A DNA stretch of 64,000 bases, from positions 1 through 64,000 of the forward strand of contig JANQJS010000063.1 in the NCBI GenBank assembly GCA_028281535.1. The letters are read 5' to 3'. Below, piece after piece: positions 7,701 through 52,699 of this stretch (the first letter of the stretch is position 1; the number at the start of each line of letters is the position of its first letter). This stretch comes from Sedimentisphaerales bacterium. Lineage in GTDB: Bacteria > Planctomycetota > Phycisphaerae > Sedimentisphaerales > SM23-30. Both the position numbers and the translations under genes were made by a program. A model generated the notes under the pieces. The model was not told the origin of the DNA. It worked only from the letters and a program-made list of their open reading frames with translations, and did no database searches.

Positions 7701-10700
7701 TTAGATAACTTCAGTACGATCAGTGATAACTTCACCATTGATGGAAGATGAGCTGAATCGTCCGAAGATCGTTGCATCAGAGACACTACCAAGGAACTGA
7801 CTGTTCGTTGCATTACCTGCGATGAATAGTGAGTTCGTGGTGCCTTGTACGAAGACATTACTAATGCTTGATGCATTGAAGTTCATGACATTGCCAAGAA
7901 CATCAAAGTTACGGATGCGACCAGATGACAAGTAGTCAACGTTACCACCGACAAAACCTTTTTGCAGTGATTCCGCTTTGATTAAATCGGCATCACCAGC
8001 GATGGCCACACCGCGAAGTGCAGAAGTCGTTTCGACTGAATCCAGGCTACCTTCAACAATCAAGTTTTTGACTTTCAGCTTGCCATGAACATCAACATGA
8101 CCAACGTTAGCACCGTTAGATCCGACAACACCATTCTTAGAAGCTTTCATAATGGTTTTGAAACCTGCTTCATCAACAGTTCCACCTGCAGCAGCCAAAG
8201 CAGCACTACCTTTTCCTGTCGTACTGGTGACATCAATATCAGTGACTTTACCGAAGATTGAACTCCAGGCAGCTGAAACATTTTTGCTACCTTTGAGGTA
8301 TAGACTCTGAGTAGTTGCACCATTGTATTCCACAGTTTGCAGTGAGCTGGTTTTGCTCAATGTACCACTGTCAGTGATACGATCAGTAGGATCATTGATA
8401 TCACCATCTGTGAACAGGTCACCGAAGTTGTTTGCTGTCAAGTCTGCGGTTGAACCATCGATGTCACCATCGTCTGTTCCAAACTCACGAACGTTGATCA
8501 AATCAACATCACCCAAGACTGGTGGGTCTGAATCGTTATTAGAAGAAGTTGTACCTTCAATTGACAAGTCACCAGCCCAGTCACCCCAGATGTTGATTTC
8601 AGTCACATCACCAACGATGTCAACTTCAGCACCTGCGTCATCTAGACCAACAATATCAAGCTGTTCAATAATGTAGTCAGTACTATCATTGTTATCAATA
8701 ATACCCGCAGCACCACCACTGACTTCAACTGAAATCGAGTCTTGGCTGAATGGGTTATTTTCAGAAACGATGGTTTCACCATCAATGGCTTTCAAGCCGA
8801 TGTTCACATCAACATCAGACAGACCAGTGATTGCTCCACCTGCGTTTGGAACGATCATACGGCTAATGAAACCAGCGACAGTCATGTTGCCAATGTTTTC
8901 AGATCCGATTGGAACTTGAAGACCACCAAAGTCACCGAAGATATCGAAGTCACCAGCAATATCACCAGCAAGAACATAAATCGTTCCAGTCGCTGTTCCG
9001 GTTGGTTCTGGAGTACCTAAGCCATCAATCACAACCGTTGGTGCAACAGTGCGGAAGTCAAGTGTACTTGAAACGTCACCCGCTTCGACCAGCACACCAC
9101 CAGTAAACCATGATGGAATACCAGCAGCAACAGCAGCACCATAAGCAGCTGAGATCGTAGCGTTGTCGATGTCACCACCAACAGCACCCGTTCCTTCAGA
9201 TTCCCAGGTACCAGACCAGTCCAAGCTAGAAGCAATTGAACCGAATGAGGTTGCTGTATGAACGGTACCAGAAACTGAACCATTCAGAGATACAACATAA
9301 CCAAGGCTGTCGATATCAGCAGTAACGCTTACATTACCAGAGGCAATGATGTTACCAGCGGTATCAGCATTAATACTTACAGTCAGATCTGTATTTTGAT
9401 CATCACCAATTTCTGCATCAAGTGCAGTTGGTGCTGTATCATCAATCACATCAGCAGTGAAGGCAGTTCCTTCATCAGCATTTGATGCTGCAAGGAAGTT
9501 CGCAGCCAATGTGTTAGAATCTAATGCGGTTGCATTGTCTGCAGCAACGATGTTGCCCAGTGTACCTGAAACAGTAACACCGAAACCATCACCATCTTCT
9601 TGAAGAAGAAGGATTTCATCAACACTAACAGGTGCACCATCACTTGCTGTCGCAGAAACAGTATCACTATCAGCAAAGATAATCAATTGATCGACGGTCA
9701 AGCCGTTTGCATCCAAGCCGGTATCAGCATCAATGTCGATGACTGCTACAGCACCAGGTGTTACTGTGTAAACACGAGGTGTGGTGTCAAGTGAGTCTGA
9801 ACGATCATTAATCGTTACACCAGTTGCACCAGCAGCAACACCAAAGAGCCAGTCACCACTGAAATCGTTACCAGTAATCGCACCAACTGTGCCACCGGTT
9901 AAGATATCAGCAGTCACATCACCTGTTGTTGCTGTGATAGCACCTAAAGTGCCACCAGCCTGGATCAAACCAGAACCGCCAACATTGACTTGAGCTGTAA
10001 CAGTACCAATGTTACCGCCAGCACTCAGTAAACCAGTAAAGCTACCGATTTGAGTCACGGTTCCATCTACATTGGTGACAGAGTTACCAATGGTCACAGC
10101 ACCAATATTGGTTGCAGCGATGATTGAACCCGTTAGGCTACCAGCAATATCAACAGCACCCGTTGAACCGGTTGAACCAGCTACACCAGCGTCGTTGAAG
10201 ATTTGAATGGTACCAGCCATATCGTTACCGGTTCCCGTGAAAGTTCCATCGGTACCAACGGTGATACTATCAATATCATAAGCGTTCAAACCACCTGTTG
10301 AAGTAATAGCACCTGTCACGGTGAAAGCAGCAATATCGTGACCTTCAATGACATAAGTCAGGTCACCATTAATGGTCACTGCACCTGTTACAATCGCGTT
10401 ATCTTCTTGTGAGATTTCAGTGATAACACCACCAGTAACTTCAAGTTCGAACGCGTTGACACCACCACCAGCTTCAAGTTCAATTGGAGTGATGAAAGCA
10501 CCAGCACCATCGCCATGCGTGACACTGATGTCACCACCGGTACTTGCAGGACCGACAGGAACAATGTAATCACCATCAGCAGGAACACCAATCGTGACCG
10601 TTCCTGCATTTGGATGCAAGAAGGCAGAAGTCATATTAGCGGCAGTTGGGTTATCAATACCCAGTACGCTACCTGCTGAGAACAAGCTTACGTTTGTTGT

Positions 10701-13700
10701 AATGACTGGAACAGTCACATCACCTTCAACAATCAAGCTAACCAACGTTCCGTCAGGACCAAGGTTGATACCAGAACCAGTGACGTTACCTTCAACAAGG
10801 ACAGTGCCAAGATCGTTGGTATCGTTTGTGACTGAGTCAGCATCAAAGTCTAGGTTGGTTAATCCGAAACCAGCACCATCAAGAATGGTGGTTGTGCCAT
10901 CAGCATCGGTATCGGTTGTTGTTAAGCTAATGTCAGCTGAAGCAGCTAAAGCAGCTGAGCCAGCATTATCCCAGTTATCGATTGTAATGGCGATGGTTTT
11001 ACCAGCACCATTGAAGACATAGTTATAAATTGGACCAGCGGTTGCATCGAATAAGTACGTTGCACCGTTAACAGCCCAGGTTGTCACAGGAGAACTTGTG
11101 GTTCCTAATGTAGCGGTTGTGTTACCAGTAATGGTTGCACCAGCCACATTATCAACATCACCACCAGCCGTAATGGTTGCTGAGTTAGCACCCGTTAGTG
11201 TTGTATTGGCATCAGCACCATCTGTAACGGTTACGGTATCGATATTACCAATTGTTGCGGTAATTGTACCAGCAATTGGTGTATCAATTGAGCTAACCGT
11301 TCCAATGTTACCACTGGAAGATGTGATGGTTGTGCTACCACCAGCACCGATACCAGCACCCGTTGCATCACCCGTTGCATTAACGGCGGTAATGTTTCCT
11401 TCAGCAGTAACATCGGCATCAACAGCAACACCAGCAACAGTTCCGATGGTTCCGGTTGTTGCGGTCACAGTTAAATCTGTAGCACCATCACCCAATGTAC
11501 CATTCAATGAGGTCACACTGGTAATGTTGGTATTTGCTGTAATGCTTGTTGTACCATTACCAGCACCGATGTTACCAACGGCTGTCACAGAACCAACGCT
11601 ACCATTGGTTGAAGTAATCGTGGTTGATTGAGCAGCATCAGCACCGATTGAGCCACCAACAAAGACGCTGGTGATGTCACCGGTTGAAGCAGTAATTGCT
11701 TCGTTGGCTGTCATGGCATTACCGAGGTTACCAGCAATGTTAACGTTGCCAATGCTCGTTGCTGTGATACTACCGTTAGCATTACCATTAACGATAATGT
11801 CTGCGATCGTACCTGTTGCAGTAATATCAGCACCATCATTAATGTTACCACCAGCACCCAAACCTGAACTACCGATCAGGATGTCACCAGCAGAACCATT
11901 AATGGTTAAGTTGCCACCCAGGTTACCACGAAGAATCAGGTCACCCATCAATCCGCCACCTGTGACGTTAATGGTCAGTGCACCACTGGTTGAACCGAAT
12001 TCAAGTGTTTCGCCAACAGCAGGAGCTACGGTACCCGATACGCCACCTTCAACAGTTACTGCGGAGAATGTCACGTTGGTAAAGCTACCAAGTGCACCAC
12101 TACCTTCAAAGATAATGGATCCGACAGTTACAGAGGAGGTCGCTGTAAATGTATTCACTAAGATTGGAGCTGCGTTCACATCAACATCAGTGTCGTTGAA
12201 TTGTTGTGCAGCACCTGTTTCCTGTTTTGAAGTAATGTAAATGTCAGGTGTCGTACCTGTGGTTGAATCAGCCAGAGAGGTGATATCAATTTGAGGACTA
12301 CCACCATTGGCATTACCATCAAAGACAACGTTTGCCGTCACACCTGTATCAACCGTTGTGGTTGACCCAGTTTCAAAAGCCCAGACAGCGTAGCTGACAC
12401 CATCATGAATGAAGGTTGCTAGCGGTGAGCTTGAAGTTGCGGCAGACGCAGTTACTGCAGCGTCAACACTTGCAGCACCTGCATCAATTAAATCAATATC
12501 AGCATCAGCTGTGATTGTACCGTTGATGTCATCACCAACTGCACCACCACTGCGAACCAAATCAATGTTTTGACCGGTAATGGTTGAGTTAATTCCACCA
12601 CCAGCAACAACACTGGTCACATTACCAGAGCTGTCTGAATCGCTATCAGCAGTAATCGCACCACCAGTGATGCTACCGGTTACTGCAACACTGAGAACAT
12701 CATCTTCAGCTGAGATGGTACCAGCGGTAATGTTACCACCAACAACAACTGAAGTAATGTCACCTGTTCCAGCGGTCACATTTGCGGTCAAGTTACCAGA
12801 GGTTGCTGTCACCGTACCAGAAATTAAACCAGCTGTTGCGACAATGTTACCATCAATGTTTGTACCAGCGGTAATGTTAGCAGCAATGTCACCTGCGGTT
12901 GCGGTAATAGCTCCATCAATGTCTGTACCAGCTGAAATGGTTGCACCAGAAGCGATGCCACCAGCTGTAACGGTTAGACCGCCATCGATGTCACCAGCAT
13001 CTGCTTTGAAGACACCGGTTGCAGCCACACCACCAGCATCAATGGTAAATAGACCTGTGAAGTTACCTGTTATTGCTTGAACAGTACCAGCTAAACCAAC
13101 CGTATCAATATCGATAGTGCTAGCAAAGTTGCCCGTTGTAGCAACCAAGCTACCAGCAGCTAAGATACCATCATCAATTTGAATGGCACCGGTGAAACCT
13201 GTTGCGGCAGTAATGGCTGCGGCCAGGTTACCATCAGCTGTGATAGCACCGATAGAACCTGCACTGGTAATCGCTGCGGTGATGTTACCACCTGCATCGA
13301 TTGAACCAATGTTACCGGTATTGGTTGAAATCGCTGCGGCGATGTTACCTTTACTGGTTCCAGATTCATCAGCATCCACCGTAATGGCACCTGTAATACT
13401 GTCAGCACTAATGGTTGCAGCAGAAGTGATATCACCGTTGGTAGATGTAATTGAAGCAATCGCACCACCCGTTGATTGGATGGTACCTGTAATATCAGTT
13501 GCAGCAGACACAGCACCAATGTTACCGTCAGATACGACAGAACCATCGATGGTGGTTGTTGCTGCAGTCACGGTACCGATTGTACCGTTACCTGTTCCTT
13601 TATTTGCAGTAAATGATGCACCAGAAAGAATACCACCGGCAGATGCACCAATGTTACCAATGGAAGCACCAGTGACAACCAGTGTACCAGTTGTGTCACC

Positions 13701-16490
13701 TAAGTTACCTGTGGTTGCGGTTACGTTACCAACGTCACCCGTATCTGCGGTACCACCATTATTAGCAGTAATCACAACACCACCAACACCACCGATTCCG
13801 GTGCTTGCTGTAATGTTGCCCACATCATCATTACCTTGAATGGTCACTGTACCACCAGTTGCATCAGAGGTGATGCTACCGGTTACACCTAAGGTTCCGA
13901 TAGAACCAAGAGCCGCACTTCCTTGTGCGTCAAATAAGATGTCACCAGCGACTGATGTACCGTCCGTTTGAATGGTAGCTGAAGAAGTTGAGTTTCCAAT
14001 GCTTTCACCTTGGAAGATCACATCACCACCATCATCGGTTGAAGCGACGGTAATACCAGCTAAAGTTAGGGCACCCAGTGCACCGTTGGTTGAACCAATG
14101 GTAATCGCACCGTTAACAGCAACACCTGTGTTGCTGATTAAGCCTGTTGCTGTGAAAGCAGCCATATCACCAGTACCCGTTCCGATACCGATGCTAATGT
14201 CACTATCATTGGTACCACTATTGGTAATAGCACCGGTTGTGGTTGTACCTGCGATACTACCGTTGGTTCCGGTGGTTACCAGGATGTCACCACCACCAGT
14301 ACCACTTGCGGTCAAAGCACCCAAGCTAACAGCACCGGTGAAACCTGTTGTACCACCATTAATGGTAGCTCCACCTGTTCCACTGGCTGTGATACCTGTG
14401 AAAGCTGTGCCACCGACAACACCAATACTGGTTCCGGCAGTCACGCTAAATGCACCTGTACTTGAAATGGTTAATAAACCATCAAGATCTAAAGTGCCAA
14501 TGGTTGTTGTAGAAGTCAGGCTGAAATCACCGCCACCAGACATGGTGTTTGCGGTGCTATCACCTAAGTCAACATTACCGATGACATTACCTTGAATGGT
14601 CACATCAGCATTGGCTGAGGTTGCCAGCATCAAGATAGAATCACCTAAGCTGAAGTTACCCATATCACCAGTGGTTGTACCAATGGTGACTGAACCAACT
14701 ACGTCAGCTTCTTGATCAATGTCAGTTGTAATCGTCACGGTACTTGAGAAATCACCAGTACCTGTTGGAGCAATAGTAATATCTGCATCACCTGATGAAT
14801 CCATATCGATGTCAGCAATAACAACAGCACCAGCGAATCCACCATTGGTGGTTGTACCCACTGTAATGTTACCAGAACCAGAACCGCTTGTGGTAATGGC
14901 ACCCAGTGTCACAGCACCGGTATAACCCGTTGTACCACCATCAATCAAGATATCACCAGACCCCGCAGAGGTAATGGCTGGGACGTTACCGCCACCAATC
15001 ACACCGATTGAGGTTGTTGCATCAATGGTAATTCCACCAGCGGAACTTGCTGCGGTTTGTAATGCTGCGGTTGAATCAATCGTACCAATCGTGGTACCTT
15101 GAATGATAACGTCACCTGTTGCGTTGGTACCATTGATTGTAATACCAGCAAGAGAAACGTTACCTAAAGCAGCACCGCTGTTACCAAATGTCATGGTACC
15201 AGGAGCGTTAACTGCAGTATTTTGAATTAAGCCAGCCGTAAAAGTCCCCATGGCACCCGTACCAGCCGTTGCAATGGTCAAGTCAGCATCAACGGTTGCA
15301 CTATTGGTCACAGTACCAACCGTTAAATTACCCATGCTACCATTTGTAGATGTTGTAATACTAATATCACCACCACCACTCTGAATGATGTTACCTGTTC
15401 CAACCGTGCTGCCGAAACCAGAATCACCACCATTGAAGGTGAAGTTACCAGTGCTACTTAATGTAAGACCACCGAATCCAAGGGCACCCGTCACACCATC
15501 ATCGGTTGCGCCGGTATCAACATCAATTGAGATATTACCAGCACCACCAACGGTCGTTAAACCAGCAACATCCCATGCACCACCGACACCTTCGGTCGTG
15601 ACTGTGAAGTTACCAGCAGCGGTCGTGATGACACCTTCCATATCAAGTGAAGCAATACCTGAACCTGCATCATTGTCAAAAGTCCAAGTGATACCGTTGG
15701 CACCAGGTAAAATATCACCATGCCAATCGATCGCACCAATTTGACCAGCGTCAATTAACGAATCGGTTGAAGTACCACCAATCAGGTCAACATCACCGTC
15801 GGTTGACGTCACGGTACCAATTGCACCTGTACCATTTGTGACGATGTGAGTTTCTACCGTCAGGCCAGTAAAGTTAGTAGCACCAAAGGTAATGTTACCA
15901 ATGGCCTGGTTGGCTGAACCGGTGTACGTCTCACCTGTATTGGCAGGAGCGGCTGAAATATTGGCACCAGCTGAGGTGAAGACAGTCGCCGTATCAGAAA
16001 GACCGTCAACGGTAAAGTCTTGATCATCATCACCAGCAGCATCTTCCGTTGTCGTAATACCAGTACCAATGATCAGATCAAGCTCAGTTGTACCGGCATC
16101 CAAACCACTCAGGTCGATGTTTGCAATATTTAAGTTAGTTACAAGGAAAATGGTCGCCGCACCAGCACCGCCAGTATCCTGAACGGTAATATTCAGCGTA
16201 AATGTATCCGTCGCACCACCATCGCTTAAGTCAGCGACCGTAACACTGTCGATACCCGTACTGGTTGCACCCAGAGCGATAAAACCGTCAGTAGCATTAA
16301 AGGTATTGTCGCCGGTGACATCGTATGCAGTATAATCACCGGGATTCAACACCACTGCAGCAGGAGCAATACGTTCTTCCAGTTCTTCAACTTTCAGACG
16401 CTGCTGATACTGCTGAATGCGATTGGCAAGCAGGGCAGATTTGGAATACCTGCTCGCGTTTCTAAATAATTTGCGAAGCCCATTGGCCAT
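7701..16490 (-). CDS. Giant (2929 aa) Gly/Thr/Ala/Ser/Ile/Asp/Asn-rich repetitive surface or secreted protein, probably a parallel beta-helix / adhesin-like repeat protein. There is no N-terminal signal peptide.
   Basis: Single uninterrupted ORF with a GGAGA RBS 7 nt before the ATG. It carries hundreds of short degenerate repeats of the type ITATTGNIGSIDAGGNITAA. The N-terminus MANGLRKLFRNASRYSKSALLANRIQQYQQRLKVEELEERIAPAAVV is charged and not Sec-like. Strong codon bias creates many spurious antisense ORFs. Confidence 0.85.
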   Translation of the reverse strand: MANGLRKLFRNASRYSKSALLANRIQQYQQRLKVEELEERIAPAAVVLNPGDYTAYDVTGDNTFNATDGFIALGATSTGIDSVTVADLSDGGATDTFTLNITVQDTGGAGAATIFLVTNLNIANIDLSGLDAGTTELDLIIGTGITTTEDAAGDDDQDFTVDGLSDTATVFTSAGANISAAPANTGETYTGSANQAIGNITFGATNFTGLTVETHIVTNGTGAIGTVTSTDGDVDLIGGTSTDSLIDAGQIGAIDWHGDILPGANGITWTFDNDAGSGIASLDMEGVITTAAGNFTVTTEGVGGAWDVAGLTTVGGAGNISIDVDTGATDDGVTGALGFGGLTLSSTGNFTFNGGDSGFGSTVGTGNIIQSGGGDISITTSTNGSMGNLTVGTVTNSATVDADLTIATAGTGAMGTFTAGLIQNTAVNAPGTMTFGNSGAALGNVSLAGITINGTNATGDVIIQGTTIGTIDSTAALQTAASSAGGITIDATTSIGVIGGGNVPAITSAGSGDILIDGGTTGYTGAVTLGAITTSGSGSGNITVGTTTNGGFAGAVVIADIDMDSSGDADITIAPTGTGDFSSTVTITTDIDQEADVVGSVTIGTTTGDMGNFSLGDSILMLATSANADVTIQGNVIGNVDLGDSTANTMSGGGDFSLTSTTTIGTLDLDGLLTISSTGAFSVTAGTSIGVVGGTAFTGITASGTGGATINGGTTGFTGAVSLGALTASGTGGGDILVTTGTNGSIAGTTTTGAITNSGTNDSDISIGIGTGTGDMAAFTATGLISNTGVAVNGAITIGSTNGALGALTLAGITVASTDDGGDVIFQGESIGNSTSSATIQTDGTSVAGDILFDAQGSAALGSIGTLGVTGSITSDATGGTVTIQGNDDVGNITASTGIGGVGGVVITANNGGTADTGDVGNVTATTGNLGDTTGTLVVTGASIGNIGASAGGILSGASFTANKGTGNGTIGTVTAATTTIDGSVVSDGNIGAVSAATDITGTIQSTGGAIASITSTNGDITSAATISADSITGAITVDADESGTSKGNIAAAISTNTGNIGSIDAGGNITAAITSAGSIGAITADGNLAAAITAATGFTGAIQIDDGILAAGSLVATTGNFASTIDIDTVGLAGTVQAITGNFTGLFTIDAGGVAATGVFKADAGDIDGGLTVTAGGIASGATISAGTDIDGAITATAGDIAANITAGTNIDGNIVATAGLISGTVTATSGNLTANVTAGTGDITSVVVGGNITAGTISAEDDVLSVAVTGSITGGAITADSDSDSSGNVTSVVAGGGINSTITGQNIDLVRSGGAVGDDINGTITADADIDLIDAGAASVDAAVTASAATSSSPLATFIHDGVSYAVWAFETGSTTTVDTGVTANVVFDGNANGGSPQIDITSLADSTTGTTPDIYITSKQETGAAQQFNDTDVDVNAAPILVNTFTATSSVTVGSIIFEGSGALGSFTNVTFSAVTVEGGVSGTVAPAVGETLEFGSTSGALTINVTGGGLMGDLILRGNLGGNLTINGSAGDILIGSSGLGAGGNINDGADITATGTIADIIVNGNANGSITATSIGNVNIAGNLGNAMTANEAITASTGDITSVFVGGSIGADAAQSTTITSTNGSVGSVTAVGNIGAGNGTTSITANTNITSVTSLNGTLGDGATDLTVTATTGTIGTVAGVAVDADVTAEGNITAVNATGDATGAGIGAGGSTTITSSSGNIGTVSSIDTPIAGTITATIGNIDTVTVTDGADANTTLTGANSATITAGGDVDNVAGATITGNTTATLGTTSSPVTTWAVNGATYLFDATAGPIYNYVFNGAGKTIAITIDNWDNAGSAALAASADISLTTTDTDADGTTTILDGAGFGLTNLDFDADSVTNDTNDLGTVLVEGNVTGSGINLGPDGTLVSLIVEGDVTVPVITTNVSLFSAGSVLGIDNPTAANMTSAFLHPNAGTVTIGVPADGDYIVPVGPASTGGDISVTHGDGAGAFITPIELEAGGGVNAFELEVTGGVITEISQEDNAIVTGAVTINGDLTYVIEGHDIAAFTVTGAITSTGGLNAYDIDSITVGTDGTFTGTGNDMAGTIQIFNDAGVAGSTGSTGAVDIAGSLTGSIIAATNIGAVTIGNSVTNVDGTVTQIGSFTGLLSAGGNIGTVTAQVNVGGSGLIQAGGTLGAITATTGDVTADILTGGTVGAITGNDFSGDWLFGVAAGATGVTINDRSDSLDTTPRVYTVTPGAVAVIDIDADTGLDANGLTVDQLIIFADSDTVSATASDGAPVSVDEILLLQEDGDGFGVTVSGTLGNIVAADNATALDSNTLAANFLAASNADEGTAFTADVIDDTAPTALDAEIGDDQNTDLTVSINADTAGNIIASGNVSVTADIDSLGYVVSLNGSVSGTVHTATSFGSIASSLDWSGTWESEGTGAVGGDIDNATISAAYGAAVAAGIPSWFTGGVLVEAGDVSSTLDFRTVAPTVVIDGLGTPEPTGTATGTIYVLAGDIAGDFDIFGDFGGLQVPIGSENIGNMTVAGFISRMIVPNAGGAITGLSDVDVNIGLKAIDGETIVSENNPFSQDSISVEVSGGAAGIIDNNDSTDYIIEQLDIVGLDDAGAEVDIVGDVTEINIWGDWAGDLSIEGTTSSNNDSDPPVLGDVDLINVREFGTDDGDIDGSTADLTANNFGDLFTDGDINDPTDRITDSGTLSKTSSLQTVEYNGATTQSLYLKGSKNVSAAWSSIFGKVTDIDVTSTTGKGSAALAAAGGTVDEAGFKTIMKASKNGVVGSNGANVGHVDVHGKLKVKNLIVEGSLDSVETTSALRGVAIAGDADLIKAESLQKGFVGGNVDYLSSGRIRNFDVLGNVMNFNASSISNVFVQGTTNSLFIAGNATNSQFLGSVSDATIFGRFSSSSINGEVITDRTEVI

Positions 16491-24275: not shown

Positions 24276-25115
24276 ATGAATTCAGATAGTCATATAGTTG
24301 GACTGATTGCTGGCCAGGGCCGTTTGCCTTTTATGGTTGCTGATGGCGCACGTGCGGCAGGAAAGCGTGTTGTTTGCGTTGGGCTAGCGGACCAGGCGGA
24401 TCCAGAACTTGCTAAGCATGTAGATGTGTTTCACTGGGTCGGGCTAGTGAAGCTTGGGCAGTGGATGCGAAAACTCCGCCGCGAGGGTGTGACTGAAACG
24501 ATTATGGTCGGACGTGTTTCCAAGCGACAAATGTATACGCCCATGCGGATCATTCGCTATTTGCCAGACTGGCGTGCTTTACGCTTGTGGTATGGCAGGC
24601 TTCGTGTTAAAGATAAACGCAACGATAGTTTACTATGCGCTTTGGCCGACGAACTGGCCAGCGGAGGAATCATTTTGGACGATTCAACAAAATATTGTCA
24701 GGAACACCTGGCCAAAGAAGGTGTGATGACTCAACGGCAACCGAGCGATTTCGAACATAAAGATATCGAGTTCGGCTGGGAGATTGTCAAACGCATGGGT
24801 GATCTGGATATTGGCCAGGCGATCGCCGTGAAAGAACGTGAAGTCATCGCGGTCGAAGCGATTGAAGGTACTGACGAGATGATCCAACGTGCGGGCAGTC
24901 TTTGTAAAGCGGGTGGTTGGACCTTAATTAAAACAGCCAAACCTAATCAAGACATGCGGTTTGATGTACCGACAGTTGGACCGGGTACGATTGAAAATTT
25001 GAAAAAGAATCATGCAAAATGTTTGGTGATCGAAGCAGGTAAAACGCTGATTGTGGATATGGAAGAGACGATAAAGTTAGCAGACAAATATAAAATTGCC
25101 ATTATCGGGATGTAA
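24276..25115 (+). CDS. lpxI: UDP-2,3-diacylglucosamine hydrolase LpxI (DUF1009)
   Basis: 279 aa with LpxI-like N- and C-terminal domains (GLIAGQGRLPF...DVPTVGPGTIENL). It sits adjacent to lpxD. Confidence 0.75.
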   Translation: MNSDSHIVGLIAGQGRLPFMVADGARAAGKRVVCVGLADQADPELAKHVDVFHWVGLVKLGQWMRKLRREGVTETIMVGRVSKRQMYTPMRIIRYLPDWRALRLWYGRLRVKDKRNDSLLCALADELASGGIILDDSTKYCQEHLAKEGVMTQRQPSDFEHKDIEFGWEIVKRMGDLDIGQAIAVKEREVIAVEAIEGTDEMIQRAGSLCKAGGWTLIKTAKPNQDMRFDVPTVGPGTIENLKKNHAKCLVIEAGKTLIVDMEETIKLADKYKIAIIGM

Positions 25116-25148
25116 ATAAAAGTAAGCAGGAACATAGCCCCGCTTACT
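25113..25148 (-). terminator. Hairpin terminator between convergent lpxI and rtcB
   Basis: AGTAAGC...GCTTACT stem, followed by TTTTATTT on the minus strand immediately after the rtcB stop. Confidence 0.55.
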
Positions 25149-26545
25149 CAATCTTCGGGACGTTCGCCAGCAGGGGCCATTTTTACGATCCTTGGATCGA
25201 AGCGTGCGATAGGGTCTACCAGATCGGATTGGGATTTCATGACCATGTCGATATCTTTGTAGGCCATGGGTACTTCGTCTAATCCGGCGGACATTAATTT
25301 GACATTTCGTTCATCCAAGAATTTTTTGGCTTCGTGCCAAGTAAAGTTTTCTTTGGCTTTTTTACGGCTCATTTTTCGTCCTGCACCATGTGATGCGGAA
25401 TTCAATGAGGCTTCATTCCCCTTGCCTCGTACAATGTAGCCGCTTGTGCCCATTGACCCTGGGATAATACCCAACACGCCATCGCCGGCAGGTGTAGCAC
25501 CTTTACGATGCACGATCAGTTCTTTGCCATCATGGATTTCTTTCCAGGCGAAGTTGTGATGGTTTTCGATATCCAGTAACACATCGACGCCTAAATTTTT
25601 GGCGATATGTTTATGGATCAATGCATGGTTTGCCGCGGCATACTGGCCCATTAGCTCCATAGCCTGCCAATATTCCTGACCATCAGCAGAATCCAAATCT
25701 AACCATGCCAAATGCATCAAATCTTTGGGTAGCTCTGGATGTTTTTGGATCGCCAATTTACTATAATGATCGGCAATAGCCGCGCCGGTTCCACGGCTGC
25801 CGCTATGGCTTAACAGTGCCAGGTAGGTTCCTGCTTCAAGGCCAAGGTCATCCTTCTCTAAAGTCAATTCGCCATACTCAACAAAGTGATTACCACTGCC
25901 ACTGGTGCCTAATTGACTCCAGGCTTTGTCTTTGAGGTTGCGCGTTAAATCGGTAAACGTCCAATCGTCATCCATGACATCATGCTGGCGACGTTTTTTG
26001 AAACTGGCACCGATGCCAAAACGTGTCTCGGTTTCGATAGCGTTTTCCAGTTTACCGGTTTGGCCTTCCAAAGCAGACAGCGGCATATCCAAGACCGTCA
26101 TTTTCATGCGGCAGGCAATATCAACACCAACGGCAAATGGAATCACCGCATTGTCGGTTCCCAATACCCCTCCAATCGGTAAACCATAACCCACATGCGC
26201 ATCAGGCATCAATGCACCAGCAACAGAGACAGGTAATTTGCATGCATTTTCCATCTGTTCGATGGATTGCGGTTCAAAATCGCCGCCCCACTGCTGGTAG
26301 GGTGCTGGCTCTGTGCGATGTTCATAACGCGCACGAGCCTCAACTGAAGCAAGTAAAACGTTTGCTAACGGTGCAAAGATCTTATCATTTTTATATTGCT
26401 CAGGATTTTCTGCTAAGCTACGAATGGTATGGCGAACCTGAGCTTTTGGCAATCGCTCCTTACCTGCAGCCGCGACAACCTCGCGTGCTACAACCATAAC
26501 GTTACCTTTAGGAATGCCTAAATTTAATAATTCACGTGTTTTCAT
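25148..26545 (-). CDS. rtcB: RNA-splicing ligase RtcB
   Basis: 465 aa with conserved RtcB blocks (metal-binding His/Cys positions; C-terminal ...ASHGAGRKMSRKKAKE). Confidence 0.9.
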   Translation of the reverse strand: MKTRELLNLGIPKGNVMVVAREVVAAAGKERLPKAQVRHTIRSLAENPEQYKNDKIFAPLANVLLASVEARARYEHRTEPAPYQQWGGDFEPQSIEQMENACKLPVSVAGALMPDAHVGYGLPIGGVLGTDNAVIPFAVGVDIACRMKMTVLDMPLSALEGQTGKLENAIETETRFGIGASFKKRRQHDVMDDDWTFTDLTRNLKDKAWSQLGTSGSGNHFVEYGELTLEKDDLGLEAGTYLALLSHSGSRGTGAAIADHYSKLAIQKHPELPKDLMHLAWLDLDSADGQEYWQAMELMGQYAAANHALIHKHIAKNLGVDVLLDIENHHNFAWKEIHDGKELIVHRKGATPAGDGVLGIIPGSMGTSGYIVRGKGNEASLNSASHGAGRKMSRKKAKENFTWHEAKKFLDERNVKLMSAGLDEVPMAYKDIDMVMKSQSDLVDPIARFDPRIVKMAPAGERPED

Positions 26546-26664
26546 TTGATTTCCTATTCTATACTAATTCTGACCTTTTAAAAATACTAAATGCATGGAT
26601 TCCTGTGCGTTCGGCGATGCTCAGTGCAGGCTCTTCGCAAGGTTGTCAAACGGCCGACCTTTCT

Positions 26665-27684
26665 TTATTTTGAGAATTTCACCTCAAATATGTTTTTACT
26701 TATGTGTTTCACATCGATAGTTACATCAAGAAACTTTTTAATCACCTCAATATTTGTTAGACTATGTTGTGTTAATGCAACGGTTCGAAAGACGCCTTCG
26801 CCAGCTAATGCTAACGGCAGCAATAATTGATCAGATAAGTATGGCCCTACCGGAACACTTTGATCTAAATACTCTTTTATTTCATCGATCACAGGATAAA
26901 GCACTTTCGGTATCGAAACATTTTTCTGACCGAAAGCAGTAAATATTTCTGTCAGTAATTCGCTAGCGATCTCGAAGGTAATGACATTACCCGGACCTGG
27001 CGAATTATCAAATTCATGTACCTGTAGCTCCTGACCAAACCACCCAAGTTTATCACGTACTTTTTTTAGTTCCTTTTCGGCAATTTCAACGGGTAATTGT
27101 GCAACGCTTGCAGTTGCCAGCTTTGCTGTGATTTTACCACGATCCAATAGCTCAAGGCCTGAAAGCTTCTTTACGGGCTTGACATTTACTAGTAGTTGTC
27201 CACCACCTGCTGGTGCAAAACCAGGTGCAAGCAATTTAGTTTCGATTGTTGAGCCCATTTGATTGATCAAAGGAATATAGGCTTTCTCTAGAAATTCATA
27301 AGGTGGCGCATATGGATTATGCGTACCACCTTCTAACGAAATCGTCGATTCACCTTCTGCCAAAAGCAGTGCAGGTAAAACCGTTTGCAATACCAATGTT
27401 GTACTACCCGCCGTACCAATCGCAAAGTGGAATTTGCCGGCATATAAACCGCTTGGTTTAAACAGCAAACGCTGCGAGCCAATCGCATTACCTTCAACCT
27501 TTGCACACCCCACATCAACTGCGGCATTCACTGCCGTCAAATGTTGTCGCATTAAACCGGGCTTAGGCCGACCGGAACGAATGTTGATAATCTCAAAAGG
27601 CTGCTGAGTTATCAAAGATAACGCCAGCGAACTACGTAATATCTGTCCGCCGCCTTCACCAAAAGATCCATCTATTTGTATCAT
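26665..27684 (-). CDS. rtcA: RNA 3'-terminal phosphate cyclase RtcA
   Basis: 339 aa. The N-terminus MIQIDGSFGEGGGQILRSSLALSLI is typical of RtcA, and the gene overlaps the upstream gene by 4 nt. Confidence 0.9.
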   Translation of the reverse strand: MIQIDGSFGEGGGQILRSSLALSLITQQPFEIINIRSGRPKPGLMRQHLTAVNAAVDVGCAKVEGNAIGSQRLLFKPSGLYAGKFHFAIGTAGSTTLVLQTVLPALLLAEGESTISLEGGTHNPYAPPYEFLEKAYIPLINQMGSTIETKLLAPGFAPAGGGQLLVNVKPVKKLSGLELLDRGKITAKLATASVAQLPVEIAEKELKKVRDKLGWFGQELQVHEFDNSPGPGNVITFEIASELLTEIFTAFGQKNVSIPKVLYPVIDEIKEYLDQSVPVGPYLSDQLLLPLALAGEGVFRTVALTQHSLTNIEVIKKFLDVTIDVKHISKNIFEVKFSK

Positions 27685-28226
27685 TGTTTCATCTCGATTA
27701 ATTGATTAAATATCCTGGTGATATTTCGTGCATCATCGATCCCTCGATGGTGCGTACCTTCCAGGTTCATTTTTAAAAGTTTCAATGCCTGGCCCATACC
27801 TAATCGCGTGACTCTCATGACATCAGAAAATAATTGTTTGATGTTCAAATGTTCACCTTGATAAGGCTCAATACCATGCAGTTTGCAATCACGTTTTAAT
27901 TGACGCAAATCATAACCACCCCAAGAAGCTAACATAAATGGGCCATCTTGATATGCCCAATTCATAAATGCATTAAAGCTCTCAATAAAGCCAGGAGCTT
28001 TATCCACCTGGGATTGTGTGATCGTTGTCAATTGTTTACAAAAATCTGAAAGCTCTGGATTCAACTTCGGTTTTATAAACGTTTGAAACTCATCAGACAA
28101 AATCTGCCCATGACGGTAACGCACCGCACCGATCTCGATAATCTCGCTGGTATAAGTATCTTTATCTTGCCAGCAAGTTGCTTCAAGATCAACGATAATA
28201 AATTGTTTATGTTTTAAATCTTCCAT
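27681..28226 (-). CDS. DEDDh-family 3'-5' exonuclease (DnaQ/ERI-1-like), first gene of the rtcA-rtcB operon
   Basis: 181 aa. Exo I motif FIIVDLEAT (D,E), Exo II WGGYD, Exo III HHRGIDDA (the H of DEDDh). The stop overlaps the rtcA start. Confidence 0.75.
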   Translation of the reverse strand: MEDLKHKQFIIVDLEATCWQDKDTYTSEIIEIGAVRYRHGQILSDEFQTFIKPKLNPELSDFCKQLTTITQSQVDKAPGFIESFNAFMNWAYQDGPFMLASWGGYDLRQLKRDCKLHGIEPYQGEHLNIKQLFSDVMRVTRLGMGQALKLLKMNLEGTHHRGIDDARNITRIFNQLIEMKQ

Positions 28227-28272
28227 GATATTCTCTTTTTCTATTTTAAATTAATTTTCCTTATATTTAAAG

Positions 28273-28288
28273 TGAACAGAAGGTGCCA
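28273..28288 (-). promoter_or_regulatory. Sigma-54-like -24/-12 element upstream of the exonuclease-rtcA-rtcB operon (the -24 is perfect, the -12 is weak); it overlaps a 13-bp perfect palindrome GTGCCAAAGGCAC at 28283-28295
   Basis: The minus strand reads TGGCAC-CTTCT-GTTCA, about 60 nt upstream of the exonuclease ATG. The GC of the -12 element is replaced by TC. Confidence 0.35.
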
Positions 28289-28421
28289 AAGGCACTTTTT
28301 AACGACGCGACCTTTTATTCAGTAACCCGCTCCCGTTGTTCGCTACTTTGTTCCTAGTTTTCTATTCCATTTTGGCCTTTGACAGACAAAGCTGTCACAC
28401 AATTATCCACAATACAACGAA

Positions 28422-28496
28422 TAGCCCTGATAGGATTCGAACCTACAACCATCGGTTTCTAAAACCGGCGCCTCTTGCCAATCGGGCTACAGAGCC
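28422..28496 (-). tRNA. tRNA-like gene of 75 nt that folds as a class-I cloverleaf with apparent anticodon UAG. This is anomalous, because bacterial tRNA-Leu is class II. CCA is not encoded.
   Basis: Manual fold of GGCTCTG-TA-GCC..-D loop-..GGC-G-CCGGT-TTTAGAA-ACCGA-TGGTT-GTAGG-TTCGAAT-CCTAT-CAGGGCT-A. The acceptor has 5 Watson-Crick pairs plus 2 G-U pairs, and the T-loop GGTTCGAATCC is canonical. Confidence 0.5.
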
Positions 28497-28627
28497 AAAA
28501 TGATTAAAAATACTGCCGCGAGTTAACGTGGGTAACCTTTCACGCACCTCACGGCAGCCATGTGAGGTATCATTATCTCTCTAAACATTTGCGACCACCC
28601 GACATCCCTTCCTGGTCGCGTATTGTT

Positions 28628-28667
28628 AAAAAATTATATGATGGGAAGGTAAGGGTGGCACCTTCCC
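28628..28667 (-). terminator. Rho-independent terminator after the SPFH gene
   Basis: GGGAAGG...CCTTCCC hairpin followed by ATAATTTTTT on the minus strand. Confidence 0.6.
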
Positions 28668-28686
28668 ATCGTGCGGAATCAACCTT

Positions 28687-47507: not shown

Positions 47508-50500
47508 TTAATTACGAACCTGATAGGCATCAAAGTGCAATTCACCACTGGCCCAGTTCAGGACAACGCTGTGCGTTCCACAACTCAACGTGGTATCTTC
47601 AAATGCCATGAAGCTATCTTGAGATCCACTTGTGACATTGACCGTTTGAGCAGAACCACCATCAATAGAAATCGAAAATGATTGAGCATACTCTTCTCGC
47701 CAGACATAAATACGAAGACCATTGCCATCAATGTTGAAACTCGCCGTAGCACTACCTGCTGAAAAATGAGCATCATTTTGGAAACCACCTGGAGCTGACA
47801 CATTTGTCATACCAGAATAACTGATACCAGAATCGGTATTATTCACCTGAGCAGCCCAGCTAAAACCACAACCACTACCAGCTTGTGTCGTCGCACAAGC
47901 TTGCGTAGAAGCCGTACCAGTGTTACCAACACTGTCACGTGACTGAACGGTGTAACAATACTGAGTTGAGGCCGTCAAACCGCTATCGGTATAACTGGTT
48001 GAAGTTTGCCAACCACTATCTGTACCACCAGGCGTTCCACTAACATGGTCAAAGTTATATTCAACCGGACCAGAAGGATCACTGGCTGTTGTTGCCGTCA
48101 TGCTAATAGCCGTATCGCTATCAGCACTTGGGGCTGATGCAAAGGTCGCAGGATTTGGTGTTGGAGGCGTCGTATCTGGTGGTGCTTGTGTCGTCGCACA
48201 AGACCCGCTAGAAGAAGCTCCCGTGTTACCAAGACTATCACGAGAAGTAACGGTATAGCAATATTGCGTACTTGGCGTCAGTGACGTATCGGTATACGAT
48301 GTTGACGTTTGCCATGAACTATTGCTACCACCAGGATTACCAGAAGTTTCTGTAAAGAAGTATTCTACAGGTCCTGACGGATCACTACCAGTCGTTGCGG
48401 TCATTGCGATCGCCGTAGAGCTTGTCGCCGCAGGAGCAGATGCAAAGGTTGCAGGATTCGGAGTCGGAGGCGTGGTATCAGCACCAGCCTGCGTTGTAGC
48501 ACATGCGGCAGAAGATGCTACACCTGAATTACCAACACTATCACGAGACTGAACTGTATAACAGTATTGAGTACTTGCACTCAATCCATTATCAGTATAA
48601 CTCGTTGAGGTTTGCCACTCACTATCACTGCCACCGGCACCACCACTGGTATTATCGAAATTGTATTCAACAGGACCAGATGGATCACTTGCCGTTGTCG
48701 CAGTCATAGCAATCGCACTGCTGCTCGTTGCTGCTGGGGCTGAAGCAAAGGTTGCAGGATTCGGCGTCGGAGGTGTCGTATCACCACTAACAGAATCTTC
48801 AAAGACAACGTATGCAACCTGTTCACCCGTATGAGCACGTTCAGTATCATTCAATTGATCTTCATCAATCGCCAAGTTGATATTGGTATTGGAAATTGGA
48901 TTCGCACCATAGAAAAGTGCCCAACCACCGTTGCCACCATCCATGGCTGTAAGAGTTGCAATACCGATGGAAGCAGCACTGGATAAACCACTCACGGTTC
49001 TGCCATATGGTGGTGAATTAGTGATTCCAGCAACACCATCACTCGTAACACCTGCAGCATAGTTCACACCATCAATGGCACCATTGCCTGATTCAAGTAC
49101 AATGTAACCAATGGTTTCATTCGCATGAGAATTATCAGGATCTTCGTTGACGGTTTTACCGACTTGAAGAACAGAACTACTTGGTGGGTTCTGACGAGAA
49201 CTGCCGCGAGACCAGAAAGTCACGTGACCAGCATCGTTGTAAGTCATCACCTGCCCGAGAACCACTGGGCTTGTGTAGCTATTGCTATAGCTGCGTGCTT
49301 CGCCAACCCAACTGTTATTGTTAGAAGTAACCGTTGAATTGTATTTCACGGCTTCCATTTTTACACCATCAGTTGCGACCATATAAACACCTTCTTCGAC
49401 AACCATGTAATAAACATCCATAGATGCCGGAGCATTTGGAGAACCATCCACACGAACTTGGAAGCTATTGCCGGTTGCGTTCTGAATACGTACATGCGCG
49501 GGAGCAGAACTATTACTATAACCGGGAGTGGCAACGACGACCATAGAGCTGTAACTGCTACCCAAATTAACAGTGGTCCAACTAGTACCAACGCCGCTAA
49601 CCACACCGGTTTCTAGTAATATATTACTGCTAGGTGCATCTGGTGTTGTCGCATTTTCCGCTGCAGAAGCTGCAGTGGTATTACCCAACGCATCACGAGA
49701 TGATACCATATAACTGTAAGATGTTAATGGACTCAGTCCTGAATCTGTATAGCTAGTGGAAGATTGCCATACGCTGTCTGAGCCGCCCGCATTACCAGTT
49801 TGTTCATCAAAGAAATATTGCACGGGTGCACTTTGTGCATCCAGAGCCGTGGTAGCCACCATCGCAATCTCTGTGGAACTGATGGCATTTGGTACCGTGG
49901 CAAACGTCATAGGATTTGGAATCGGTGCAGCGGTATCAGTACCACCATTGACGGTAATGGCCCCAAACATAAATTCTGGAGAGCCACTACCATGTACATG
50001 ACAGTGATAGTTATAGACATTTGACCCGCCACCATCACCAGCTGCAATATCTAAGAAATTCTGATCAAAGGTAACATTAAAAGTGACTCCTGTAGGATTC
50101 GTTGCATTTTTGTCTACCGTTGATTTAAAAATCGTATTGGCATCTATTTGAGCTTGCCCAAGAAGATAATTATGATTACCTGACAAACCAGCCCAAACAT
50201 TGTGACCTTCTTCAATAAAGGTCCACTGAACGGTGTCACCCACATTGATGGTCACATTGGCTGGGAAGAAATCGGTACCAGGACCTGCGGTAATATCAAT
50301 AAAACCATCTTCCGCTGCAGTCGTTGTACAGGATGTCGCAGAATAAGAACTCACATTAGGTGTTCCCATAGAATCACGTGCACGTACACGGTAGCAATAC
50401 TGGGTACCTGCTGATAATTCCACATCGACATACAAGGTATTTTGCGACCAGCCACTATCGGTGCCACCACTATTTCCGGACGTTTCATCAAATTGATATT

Positions 50501-52424: not shown

Positions 52425-52699
52425 ACTCACAATTCCTTTTTCTATACATCCACTTATTGATACAAAAACCATATGTCACACACACTTTTAATGCAGCAGC
52501 CAAACACTCCTTTCTTAAACTGCGCAAACAGAGGGAATAAATAAGACATTGTCATAATGAACACATTGAGATATAATGAAATGATATTGAGCCTAAGCGC
52601 TAATGCTTGGTTCATCTACGTGAGTCAACGTCTTCTGCCAAGAAATCCCGTTGGCTCACTTTTCAATCTATCTCATACAGCTATATACACACTAGCAAT

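Follow-up and report, generated by a model that had tools for sequence, protein, structure and literature searches.

The stretch of DNA analysed here (the window, 64,000 nucleotides (nt) in full) was taken from a Sedimentisphaerales bacterium of the Planctomycetota (GenBank assembly GCA_028281535.1, contig JANQJS010000063.1, positions 1 to 64,000), and it holds a cluster of RNA repair genes within which lies a tRNA gene with the leucine anticodon UAG and without the long variable arm of a class-II tRNA-Leu. The tRNA gene is located at 28496..28422 on the minus strand, 190 nt downstream of a gene coding for a Band-7 protein and upstream of rtcA and rtcB. The features of the cluster are as follows.

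The RtcR-linked cluster and its tRNA(UAG) gene

32107..33696, plus strand, divergent from the operon: RtcR, with a CARF-type RtcR domain and a σ54 AAA+ activator domain (Pfam PF06956, 6.9e-78; PF00158, 3.6e-49)
31947..31933, minus strand: σ54-type promoter candidate TGGCACAGGGATTGT, 160 nt from the rtcR start codon
31510..31863, minus strand: open reading frame (ORF) of 117 aa, no Pfam match, the first ORF past the promoter
30803..30876, minus strand: tRNA-Lys(UUU), operon leader, no encoded CCA (ARAGORN; Rfam 74.5 bits)
30457..30529, minus strand: first unit of a tandem tRNA-like pair, 'anticodon' AAA (Rfam tRNA 63.5 bits; alignment)
30382..30457, minus strand: second unit of the tandem pair, D-arm TTAGCTCAGnnGGTAGAGCA, short acceptor stem, 3' ACACCA (ARAGORN 'Ile(gat)' only; below the Rfam gathering threshold)
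28687..29991, minus strand: SPFH/Band-7 (slipin-like) protein, 434 aa (Pfam PF01145, 4.5e-29)
28640..28670, minus strand: 12-bp hairpin right after the SPFH stop codon, followed by AUAUAAUUUUUU (consensus scan; fold)
28496..28422, minus strand: short-variable-arm tRNA, anticodon UAG, Leu type (ARAGORN; Rfam tRNA; family model R1; orthologues in related loci L083, L082, L290 and L293)
27681..28226, minus strand: DEDD/RNase T-family exonuclease, 181 aa (Pfam PF00929, 1.5e-21)
26665..27684, minus strand: RtcA, RNA 3'-phosphate cyclase (Pfam PF01137, 9e-75)
25148..26545, minus strand: RtcB RNA ligase (Pfam PF01139, 4.9e-87)

The 75-nt element, the sequence of which is GGCUCUGUAGCCCGAUUGGCAAGAGGCGCCGGUUUUAGAAACCGAUGGUUGUAGGUUCGAAUCCUAUCAGGGCUA when read from 28496 to 28422, was reported by ARAGORN as tRNA-Leu(tag) at 28421..28497. 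The Rfam tRNA model (RF00005) matched it over model positions 1-71 with 52.2 bits (gathering 29; E = 2.4e-8 for the whole window), and the score above gathering together with the ARAGORN call places the element among tRNAs. In the Infernal alignment the acceptor stem has 7 bp, including the wobbles G1·U72 and U4·G69, the D-stem is 3 bp long and leaves C13·A22 unpaired, and the anticodon stem, which contains C27·A43, carries the loop UUUAGAA. The variable loop is 5 nt long (AUGGU), so that the stem-loop of more than 10 nt that characterizes class-II tRNA-Leu is absent, while the T-loop is canonical (UUCGAAU) and the discriminator is A73, the major determinant for leucyl-tRNA synthetase (LeuRS). 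U8, G18 and G19 are kept, position 14 is G rather than A, and the gene does not encode CCA but is followed by the trailer UUCG. Thus the class-I shape, the canonical T-loop and acceptor and the Leu(UAG) anticodon without a long arm, all described in an original prediction made from the letters alone, were borne out, with the strand being the minus strand. That prediction had also listed mismatches at 13-22 and 27-43; both are present, but the first is normal for class-II tRNA-Leu, with its 3-bp D-stem, and for the family described below. The minimum-free-energy fold of the element was not distinctive when compared with shuffled sequences (z = -0.3), single-sequence folding energy being usually uninformative for tRNAs, and the case therefore rests on covariance-model scores and on covariation within the family.

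Read 5' to 3' on the minus strand, the cluster proceeds from the σ54 motif through the 117-aa ORF, a small ORF, tRNA-Lys, the tandem tRNA-like pair, SPFH, the hairpin and tRNA(UAG) to the exonuclease, RtcA and RtcB, the stop codon of the exonuclease gene overlapping the start of rtcA. All eight RtcR-linked loci examined have a σ54 motif at a distance of 136-160 nt from the start codon of rtcR, with the form TGGCAC-N5-TTGY, as TGGTAT in L002 and with the ending TTGA in L038 and L057 (related loci are given by L numbers). Where no tRNA intervenes, the spacer between SPFH and RtcA measures 98-158 nt. Since the motif is kept in all eight loci and the spacers without a tRNA are short, one RtcR-dependent operon is the economical reading, and from motif and gene order we infer that the cluster is co-transcribed from the σ54 promoter. 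It had been proposed that the tRNA stands between an SPFH terminator and a separate rtc promoter; this did not hold, as the gene lies inside one same-strand RtcR-linked cluster, although the wider suggestion of an RtcR-controlled rtc locus of the kind known for tRNA-like RNAs proved correct. Only one candidate for a further σ54 promoter was found in the interval from the tRNA to the exonuclease gene; this sequence, TGGCACCTTCTGTTC at 28288..28274, lacks the -12 GC, lies within a hairpin and was rejected as unconvincing. In the same region σ70-like matches were no commoner than in shuffled sequences.

Several further observations concern the neighbouring genes. The SPFH protein has thousands of homologues, mostly in Planctomycetota. 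Among the loci screened with the window protein (tblastn, L001-L083), the exonuclease gene was found in the window operon and at this position in none of the others. A well-formed tRNA-Lys(UUU), a classic anticodon-nuclease target, sits between the σ54 promoter and the tandem pair, from which it is separated by a spacer of about 270 nt (30530-30802, minus strand) with hairpins and a TGGCAC motif at 30757..30743; no Rfam match was obtained in this spacer. Elsewhere in the window a housekeeping signal peptidase points to a host among the Phycisphaerae/Sedimentisphaerales-like Planctomycetota, and two giant ORFs of 2929 and 1654 aa (7701-16490 and 47508-52472, minus strand) and other large ORFs had no Pfam match; such ORFs are usual for planctomycete genomes and have no bearing on the tRNA.

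A family of Leu-type tRNA(UAG) genes with a short variable arm

A DNA search pattern derived from D-arm and anticodon-loop sequence in the window's subfamily, with A or G allowed at position 14, was matched in more than 120 metagenome contigs and in 83 IMG/VR viral contigs. Some of the invariance seen here in D-arm and anticodon follows from the pattern itself, which leaves the stems and position 14 free. All 198 pattern-matched genes (198/198) were 74-78 nt long, most were located in tRNA clusters, and CCA is encoded by about half of them; A73 was present in 196 of the 198 and A14 in every one. The wobble G1·U72, an unusual but recurrent feature, occurs in some 45% of the short-arm tRNA(UAG) genes (about 200 in all) and is shared by the window copy and by those of L082, L290 and L293. 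In an alignment of 80 diverse phage and metagenome members 99% of cells were paired in the cloverleaf, with a covariation score of 0.88 as against 0.20 for shuffled sequences and 0.11-0.17 for slid partners. When 14 UAG copies from operons and arrays were aligned, TAG was invariant and compensatory changes were found in 13 of the 17 predicted pairs.

A family model (R1) was built from 80 phage and metagenome members. Held-out members scored 82-94 bits, the operon copies of L290, L082 and L293 scored 91.0, 88.4 and 78.9, and the phage genes of KVP40 and LPCS28 scored 81.9 and 75.6, whereas generic tRNAs reached about 50-60 bits and E. coli leuW 54.9. The window copy, with 73.5 bits, UAG, a 5-nt variable loop, A73 and a Leu-type D-arm, belongs to the family. 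In records of cultured phages this type is annotated as tRNA-Leu (tRNA-Leu-3 of Vibrio phage KVP40 and tRNA-Leu(tag) of Cronobacter phage LPCS28, both 78 nt including CCA), and it was found in several Gordonia, Streptomyces and Mycobacterium phages as well. As a blastn query against phages the window copy, which is short and divergent, gave few matches, while a family consensus member succeeded.

Members of the family also occur in planctomycete tRNA arrays. In many other planctomycete loci, same-strand arrays of 20-40 tRNAs in a recurring order lie upstream of the same SPFH gene (L003-L005, L009, L013, L033, L053 of Adhaeretor mobilis, L030 of Lacipirellula limnantheis and others, with SPFH at about 10001). 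The array genes for Leu(UAG), Leu(CAA), Leu(GAG) and Leu(UAA) are 73-79 nt long with an unstructured variable loop of 5-10 nt (for example L003 6668-6743 and 7091-7165, and L075 219-292), whereas array Leu(CAG) is class II and 82-85 nt long. Judged from these sequences, short-arm tRNA-Leu is a large, coherent and mobile family, which is one of two modestly new points of this work. No description of a short-arm phage or array tRNA-Leu was found in the papers searched, which is absence of evidence only.

The arrays showed additional features of their own. Their order is Phe-Glu-Pro-Ile-Lys...His-[gap]-Trp-Thr-Arg-Arg-Arg-Cys-[b7a-like]-SPFH, and in arrays L003-L075 Leu(CAG), Ser and most Tyr genes stay class II. 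RtcR is usually not within 10 kb of an array, and RtcB or RtcA is sometimes nearby (L053, L026, L029). The tRNA-free gap of 650-1200 nt from tRNA-His to tRNA-Trp recurs (L003 7667-8329, L004 6621-7754, L005 8050-8722, L009 4352-5583) and may hold a conserved small gene or non-coding RNA.

The leucine identity of the family was examined by alignment with leuW and with planctomycete class-II Leu genes. The family D-arm GUAGCCCAAUUGGCAGAGGC shares the architecture of the E. coli leuW D-arm GUGGCGAAAUUGGUAGACGC: both have a 3-bp D-stem, an unpaired 13·22 and an AAUUGGYAGA loop, along with A73, and the difference from class-II tRNA-Leu is essentially confined to the variable region, which has no stem-loop. 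It was reported that bacterial LeuRS relies on A73 and on the core formed by U8-A14, G18-U55 and G19-C56, not on the anticodon, and that deletion of the variable arm is tolerated at a cost that falls mainly on affinity (PMC2377443). The anticodon is fixed at UAG while every stem covaries, which argues for selection for decoding. From the Leu-type D-arm, A73, the fixed UAG and the published recognition rules, we therefore infer that the family consists of decoding leucine tRNAs that shed the long variable arm. Codon reassignment, in which a class-I tRNA would read CUN as another amino acid, was set aside because A73 and the Leu-type D-arm are kept; it is also countered by the arrays, which carry the full set of Leu anticodons on the same body.

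It might be supposed that the window gene is simply the ordinary housekeeping tRNA-Leu(UAG) of its genome, placed beside the rtc genes by chance, and ARAGORN indeed found no second Leu tRNA in the 64-kb window. Nonetheless, its relatives are phage and array tRNAs and not chromosomal housekeeping genes, close relatives of the operon do not have it at this position, and the window copy has lesions at core positions; in addition, L-arrays are known to bring redundancy and not new anticodons (PMC8421152). We regard a housekeeping role as very improbable.

The SPFH-RtcA slot and the state of the window copy

Related loci were collected through homologues of the window SPFH protein. The closest operons have the same layout, with SPFH proteins 60-68% identical and RtcB about 70% identical to those of the window, and the number of same-strand tRNAs in their SPFH-RtcA spacer differs from operon to operon. 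There are eight in L290, seven in L082 and five in L293, each set including a short-arm tRNA(UAG); two tRNAs and a transposase but no short-arm tRNA(UAG) in L291; a single tRNA, the short-arm tRNA(UAG), in L083 and in the window; and no tRNA at all in L292, L294, L295, L002, L072 and L076. A short-arm tRNA(UAG) occupies the slot in 5 of 14 RtcR-linked loci examined and is found at that position in none of the array-type loci. As tRNA numbers vary and the lone tRNA is Leu(UAG) in both cases, we take the window gene to be what is left of a mini-array that comes and goes within the lineage, and that Leu(UAG) is the sole survivor in both lone-copy operons hints at selective retention.

Other genes and tRNAs of the related operons also vary. 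L082 (11171-11244) and L290 (5243-5316) have a tRNA(UUG) with Gln-like ends (a weak 1-72 pair and G73) and a D-arm as in the short-arm Leu family, whose score with the Leu(UAG) family model was 70-76 bits; to judge by its sequence, this suggests body sharing, or switching of anticodon or identity, in a mobile tRNA pool. An RF-1-domain (PrfH/ArfB-like) protein is encoded after rtcB in several relatives (L082 14831-15490, L083 9212-9787, L290 8434-9075, L292 8355-8984, L294 7745-8389), and a GFA-domain protein between rtcA and rtcB in some (L291-L293); both are absent from the window operon.

Taking the above together, we consider it somewhat more probable than otherwise that the element is a genuine tRNA of the widespread phage- and array-type short-arm Leu(UAG) family, the last of an SPFH-rtcA mini-array in an RtcR/σ54 repair operon, with a spare decoding role. 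Salmonella RtcR was shown to be activated by damaged or nicked tRNAs (PMC7790460, PMC10159003), and by analogy RtcR of the window would respond to damaged tRNA. Transcription would proceed from the σ54 promoter at 31947..31933 through tRNA-Lys, the tandem pair, SPFH, tRNA(UAG) and the exonuclease to rtcA and rtcB, along the gene order that is observed. The tRNA(UAG) would be excised by the general tRNA-processing enzymes and, its gene encoding no CCA, would receive CCA post-transcriptionally. Array tRNAs of Anabaena are silent until translational stress and are then strongly induced, mostly aminoacylated and co-regulated with rtcB (PMC8421152); in a similar manner tRNA(UAG) might be charged with leucine and provide spare CUN decoding during repair of the housekeeping tRNAs by the enzymes of the operon.

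A number of findings weigh against such a role. The slot is without a tRNA in the six sister operons named above, so that the tRNA is dispensable there. The window and L083 copies, at 73.5 and 74.1 bits, are the two lowest-scoring UAG members when set against the 82-94 bits of held-out members. The low score of the window copy is due to G14, where all 198 pattern-matched members have A14, to one extra base in the D-loop, and to the unpaired 27-43, which is paired in 80 of 80 members. In Aquifex aeolicus the change A14U lowered leucylation about 40-fold (PMC2377443), and the window copy has G14. Finally, the hairpin after SPFH is strong and has a U-run nearby, and the transcript could end before the tRNA. 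This hairpin is terminator-like, but its U-run is offset from the stem, and it could instead be an attenuator or an element for processing or stability; L083 has a hairpin at the equivalent place, without the U-run.

The lesions of the window copy, G14 and C27·A43, probably make it a weakened substrate, and from its sequence the copy may be on its way to loss, as in several sister operons. In this respect the earlier suggestion of a degenerate tRNA was fair in part, since C27·A43 and G14 are real departures and the copy may be called somewhat degenerate, but the element is not a unique aberration, as it belongs to a large, covarying family. Taken further, the same evidence would make the gene a relic in decay, a leftover of the mini-array with little or no function that has simply escaped deletion so far. 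G14 breaks the universal U8-A14 pair and comes with the D-loop insertion and C27·A43, the lone copy of L083 is also damaged (C8, U1·U72 and one broken T-stem pair), both copies score about 15 bits below typical members, and the slot has been emptied of tRNAs in six related operons and entered by a transposase in one. Against this, the four stems, T-loop, G18G19, U33, anticodon and A73 of the window copy are intact, it still scores 52 bits with the general tRNA model and 73.5 bits with that of the family, and Leu(UAG) as the lone survivor in both cases hints at selective retention. A relic is an alternative that we find unlikely, though it deserves to be taken seriously. The U8-A14 tertiary pair is altered in both lone copies (G14 in the window, C8 in L083; n = 2), which may be chance decay or may hint at lost chargeability.

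A mimic under RtcR control had been considered for the element, as tRNA-like Y RNAs are encoded next to rtcB in several bacteria. Such a mimic does exist in the operon, but it is not the element: the true tRNA mimic of the locus is the tandem pair at 30529..30382, two abutting units located about 390 nt upstream of SPFH and about 2 kb upstream of tRNA(UAG), and conserved in all close relatives. The first unit is homologous to units in relatives with or without a long arm. In the second, the D-arm (GGTTAGCTCA..GGTAGAGCA) is near-invariant and the anticodon stem conserved, while the 'anticodon' takes 20 values in 31 loci, with 12 instances of A34, a stop anticodon and one malformed loop (ARAGORN '???', a 2-nt anticodon). 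Repair systems of Band-7, 'b7a-tRNA' and RtcB are described, citing Burroughs and Aravind 2016, in bioRxiv 10.1101/312249, and going by that summary the second unit is probably a mimic of the published 'b7a-tRNA' type. A YrlA match at 30501..30413, across the junction of the two units, was weak (28.7 bits as against a gathering threshold of 69). The idea that the element itself is Y-RNA-like was rejected, given that a permissive Rfam scan of 25000-32300, with the threshold relaxed to E <= 10, placed neither a Y_RNA nor a YrlA match on 28422-28496.

A non-translational function of tRNA(UAG) might still take several forms, namely a mimic, decoy or cofactor acting with SPFH and RtcB in the manner of b7a-tRNA or YrlA, a sponge or bait for anticodon nucleases, or a source of the ligand that activates RtcR. 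The gene does sit in a type of RNA repair operon reported with tRNA-like RNA (bioRxiv 10.1101/312249), both single-copy versions are changed at U8-A14, the pair needed by LeuRS, and a sponge role was proposed for array tRNAs (PMC8421152). However, the anticodon of the family is invariant, as against the 20 anticodons in 31 loci of the locus's real mimic, and the family is not specific to repair operons, SPFH or Rtc genes being found in the available flanks of only 4 of about 200 pattern-matched loci. Furthermore, many orthologous operons are without the tRNA, Y-RNA models do not match it and the U8-A14 pattern is seen in just the two lone copies, leaving a non-translational function distinctly unlikely.

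More speculatively, RtcR may directly drive phage-type 'spare' tRNAs, the short arm might evade nucleases that recognise class-II tRNA-Leu of the host, and independent U8-A14 changes may have made the lone copies of the window and L083 into non-chargeable decoys or cofactors, that is, a tRNA turning into a b7a-like mimic; we hold this extended proposal to be doubtful. If the spare decoding role is correct, the sensor of tRNA damage (RtcR), the repair enzymes (RtcA and RtcB) and a supply of replacement tRNA would be directly linked in one σ54 operon, and the 'spare or sponge tRNA' idea that came from cyanobacterial arrays could be put to the test in an operon of simple make-up. The frequent occurrence of short-arm tRNA-Leu in phages and arrays also bears on tRNA annotation, on LeuRS recognition rules and on possible nuclease evasion by mobile tRNAs, and a 'class-I Leu' call on a sequence of this type is not an anomaly. 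The operon type, the tRNA-like partners of Band-7 and RtcB, the long tRNA arrays and the link of arrays to rtcB are already in the literature, as is the Leu label in phage records; modestly new is the physical embedding of short-arm Leu tRNAs in RtcR/σ54 repair operons of Planctomycetota.

Comparison with known systems

The Salmonella rsr-yrlBA-rtcBA operon resembles the window operon in having an RNA with a tRNA fold in an RtcR-controlled operon together with rtcB and rtcA. YrlA and Y RNAs consist of a Ro-binding stem and a tRNA-like module, whereas the element forms a full cloverleaf, anticodon loop included, and has no match to these RNAs. No TROVE (Ro60/Rsr) domain was found among the operon ORFs in a Pfam scan that did detect RtcR, Band_7, RNase_T, RTC and RtcB.

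Like the Band-7/b7a-tRNA/RtcB systems, the window operon combines a Band-7 protein, RtcB and tRNA-like genes, and the element falls under the loose definition of a tRNA-like gene beside Band-7 in an RtcB locus, as far as this is set out in bioRxiv 10.1101/312249. Unlike the element, whose anticodon is constant, the constant Band-7 partner at 30457..30382 lies about 370-590 nt upstream of SPFH and has a freely varying anticodon. Nor does the element co-occur consistently with Band-7, being present in 5 of 14 RtcR-linked loci.

With E. coli leuW (class II, 85 nt) the element shares UAG, A73, the 3-bp D-stem, a D-loop of the AAUUGGYAGA type and G18G19. The variable region of leuW and of the class-II array Leu genes has 13-17 extra nt forming a stem-loop, as compared with the 5 nt of the window copy, which also differs in having G14. 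The phage tRNA-Leu(UAG) genes of KVP40 and LPCS28 have, like the window copy, the D-arm UAGCCCAAUUGGCAGAGGC, the loop YUUAGRA, a 5-nt variable loop and A73. CCA is usually encoded in the phage copies, which have A14 and belong to phage tRNA clusters; the window copy, by contrast, is chromosomal, lies in an rtc operon, encodes no CCA and has G14 and C27·A43.

From the Anabaena-type L-arrays (PMC8421152) the window operon differs in that its slot holds one tRNA and thus falls short of a long same-strand array, its relatives having 5-8 or 20-40. Control in Anabaena is by a TrcR-type repressor and direct repeats, whereas in the window it is presumably by RtcR and σ54. The points of resemblance are that the array tRNAs are extra, horizontally spread sets tied to rtcB functionally and genomically, and that the related planctomycete arrays, beside the same SPFH gene, include short-arm Leu(UAG).

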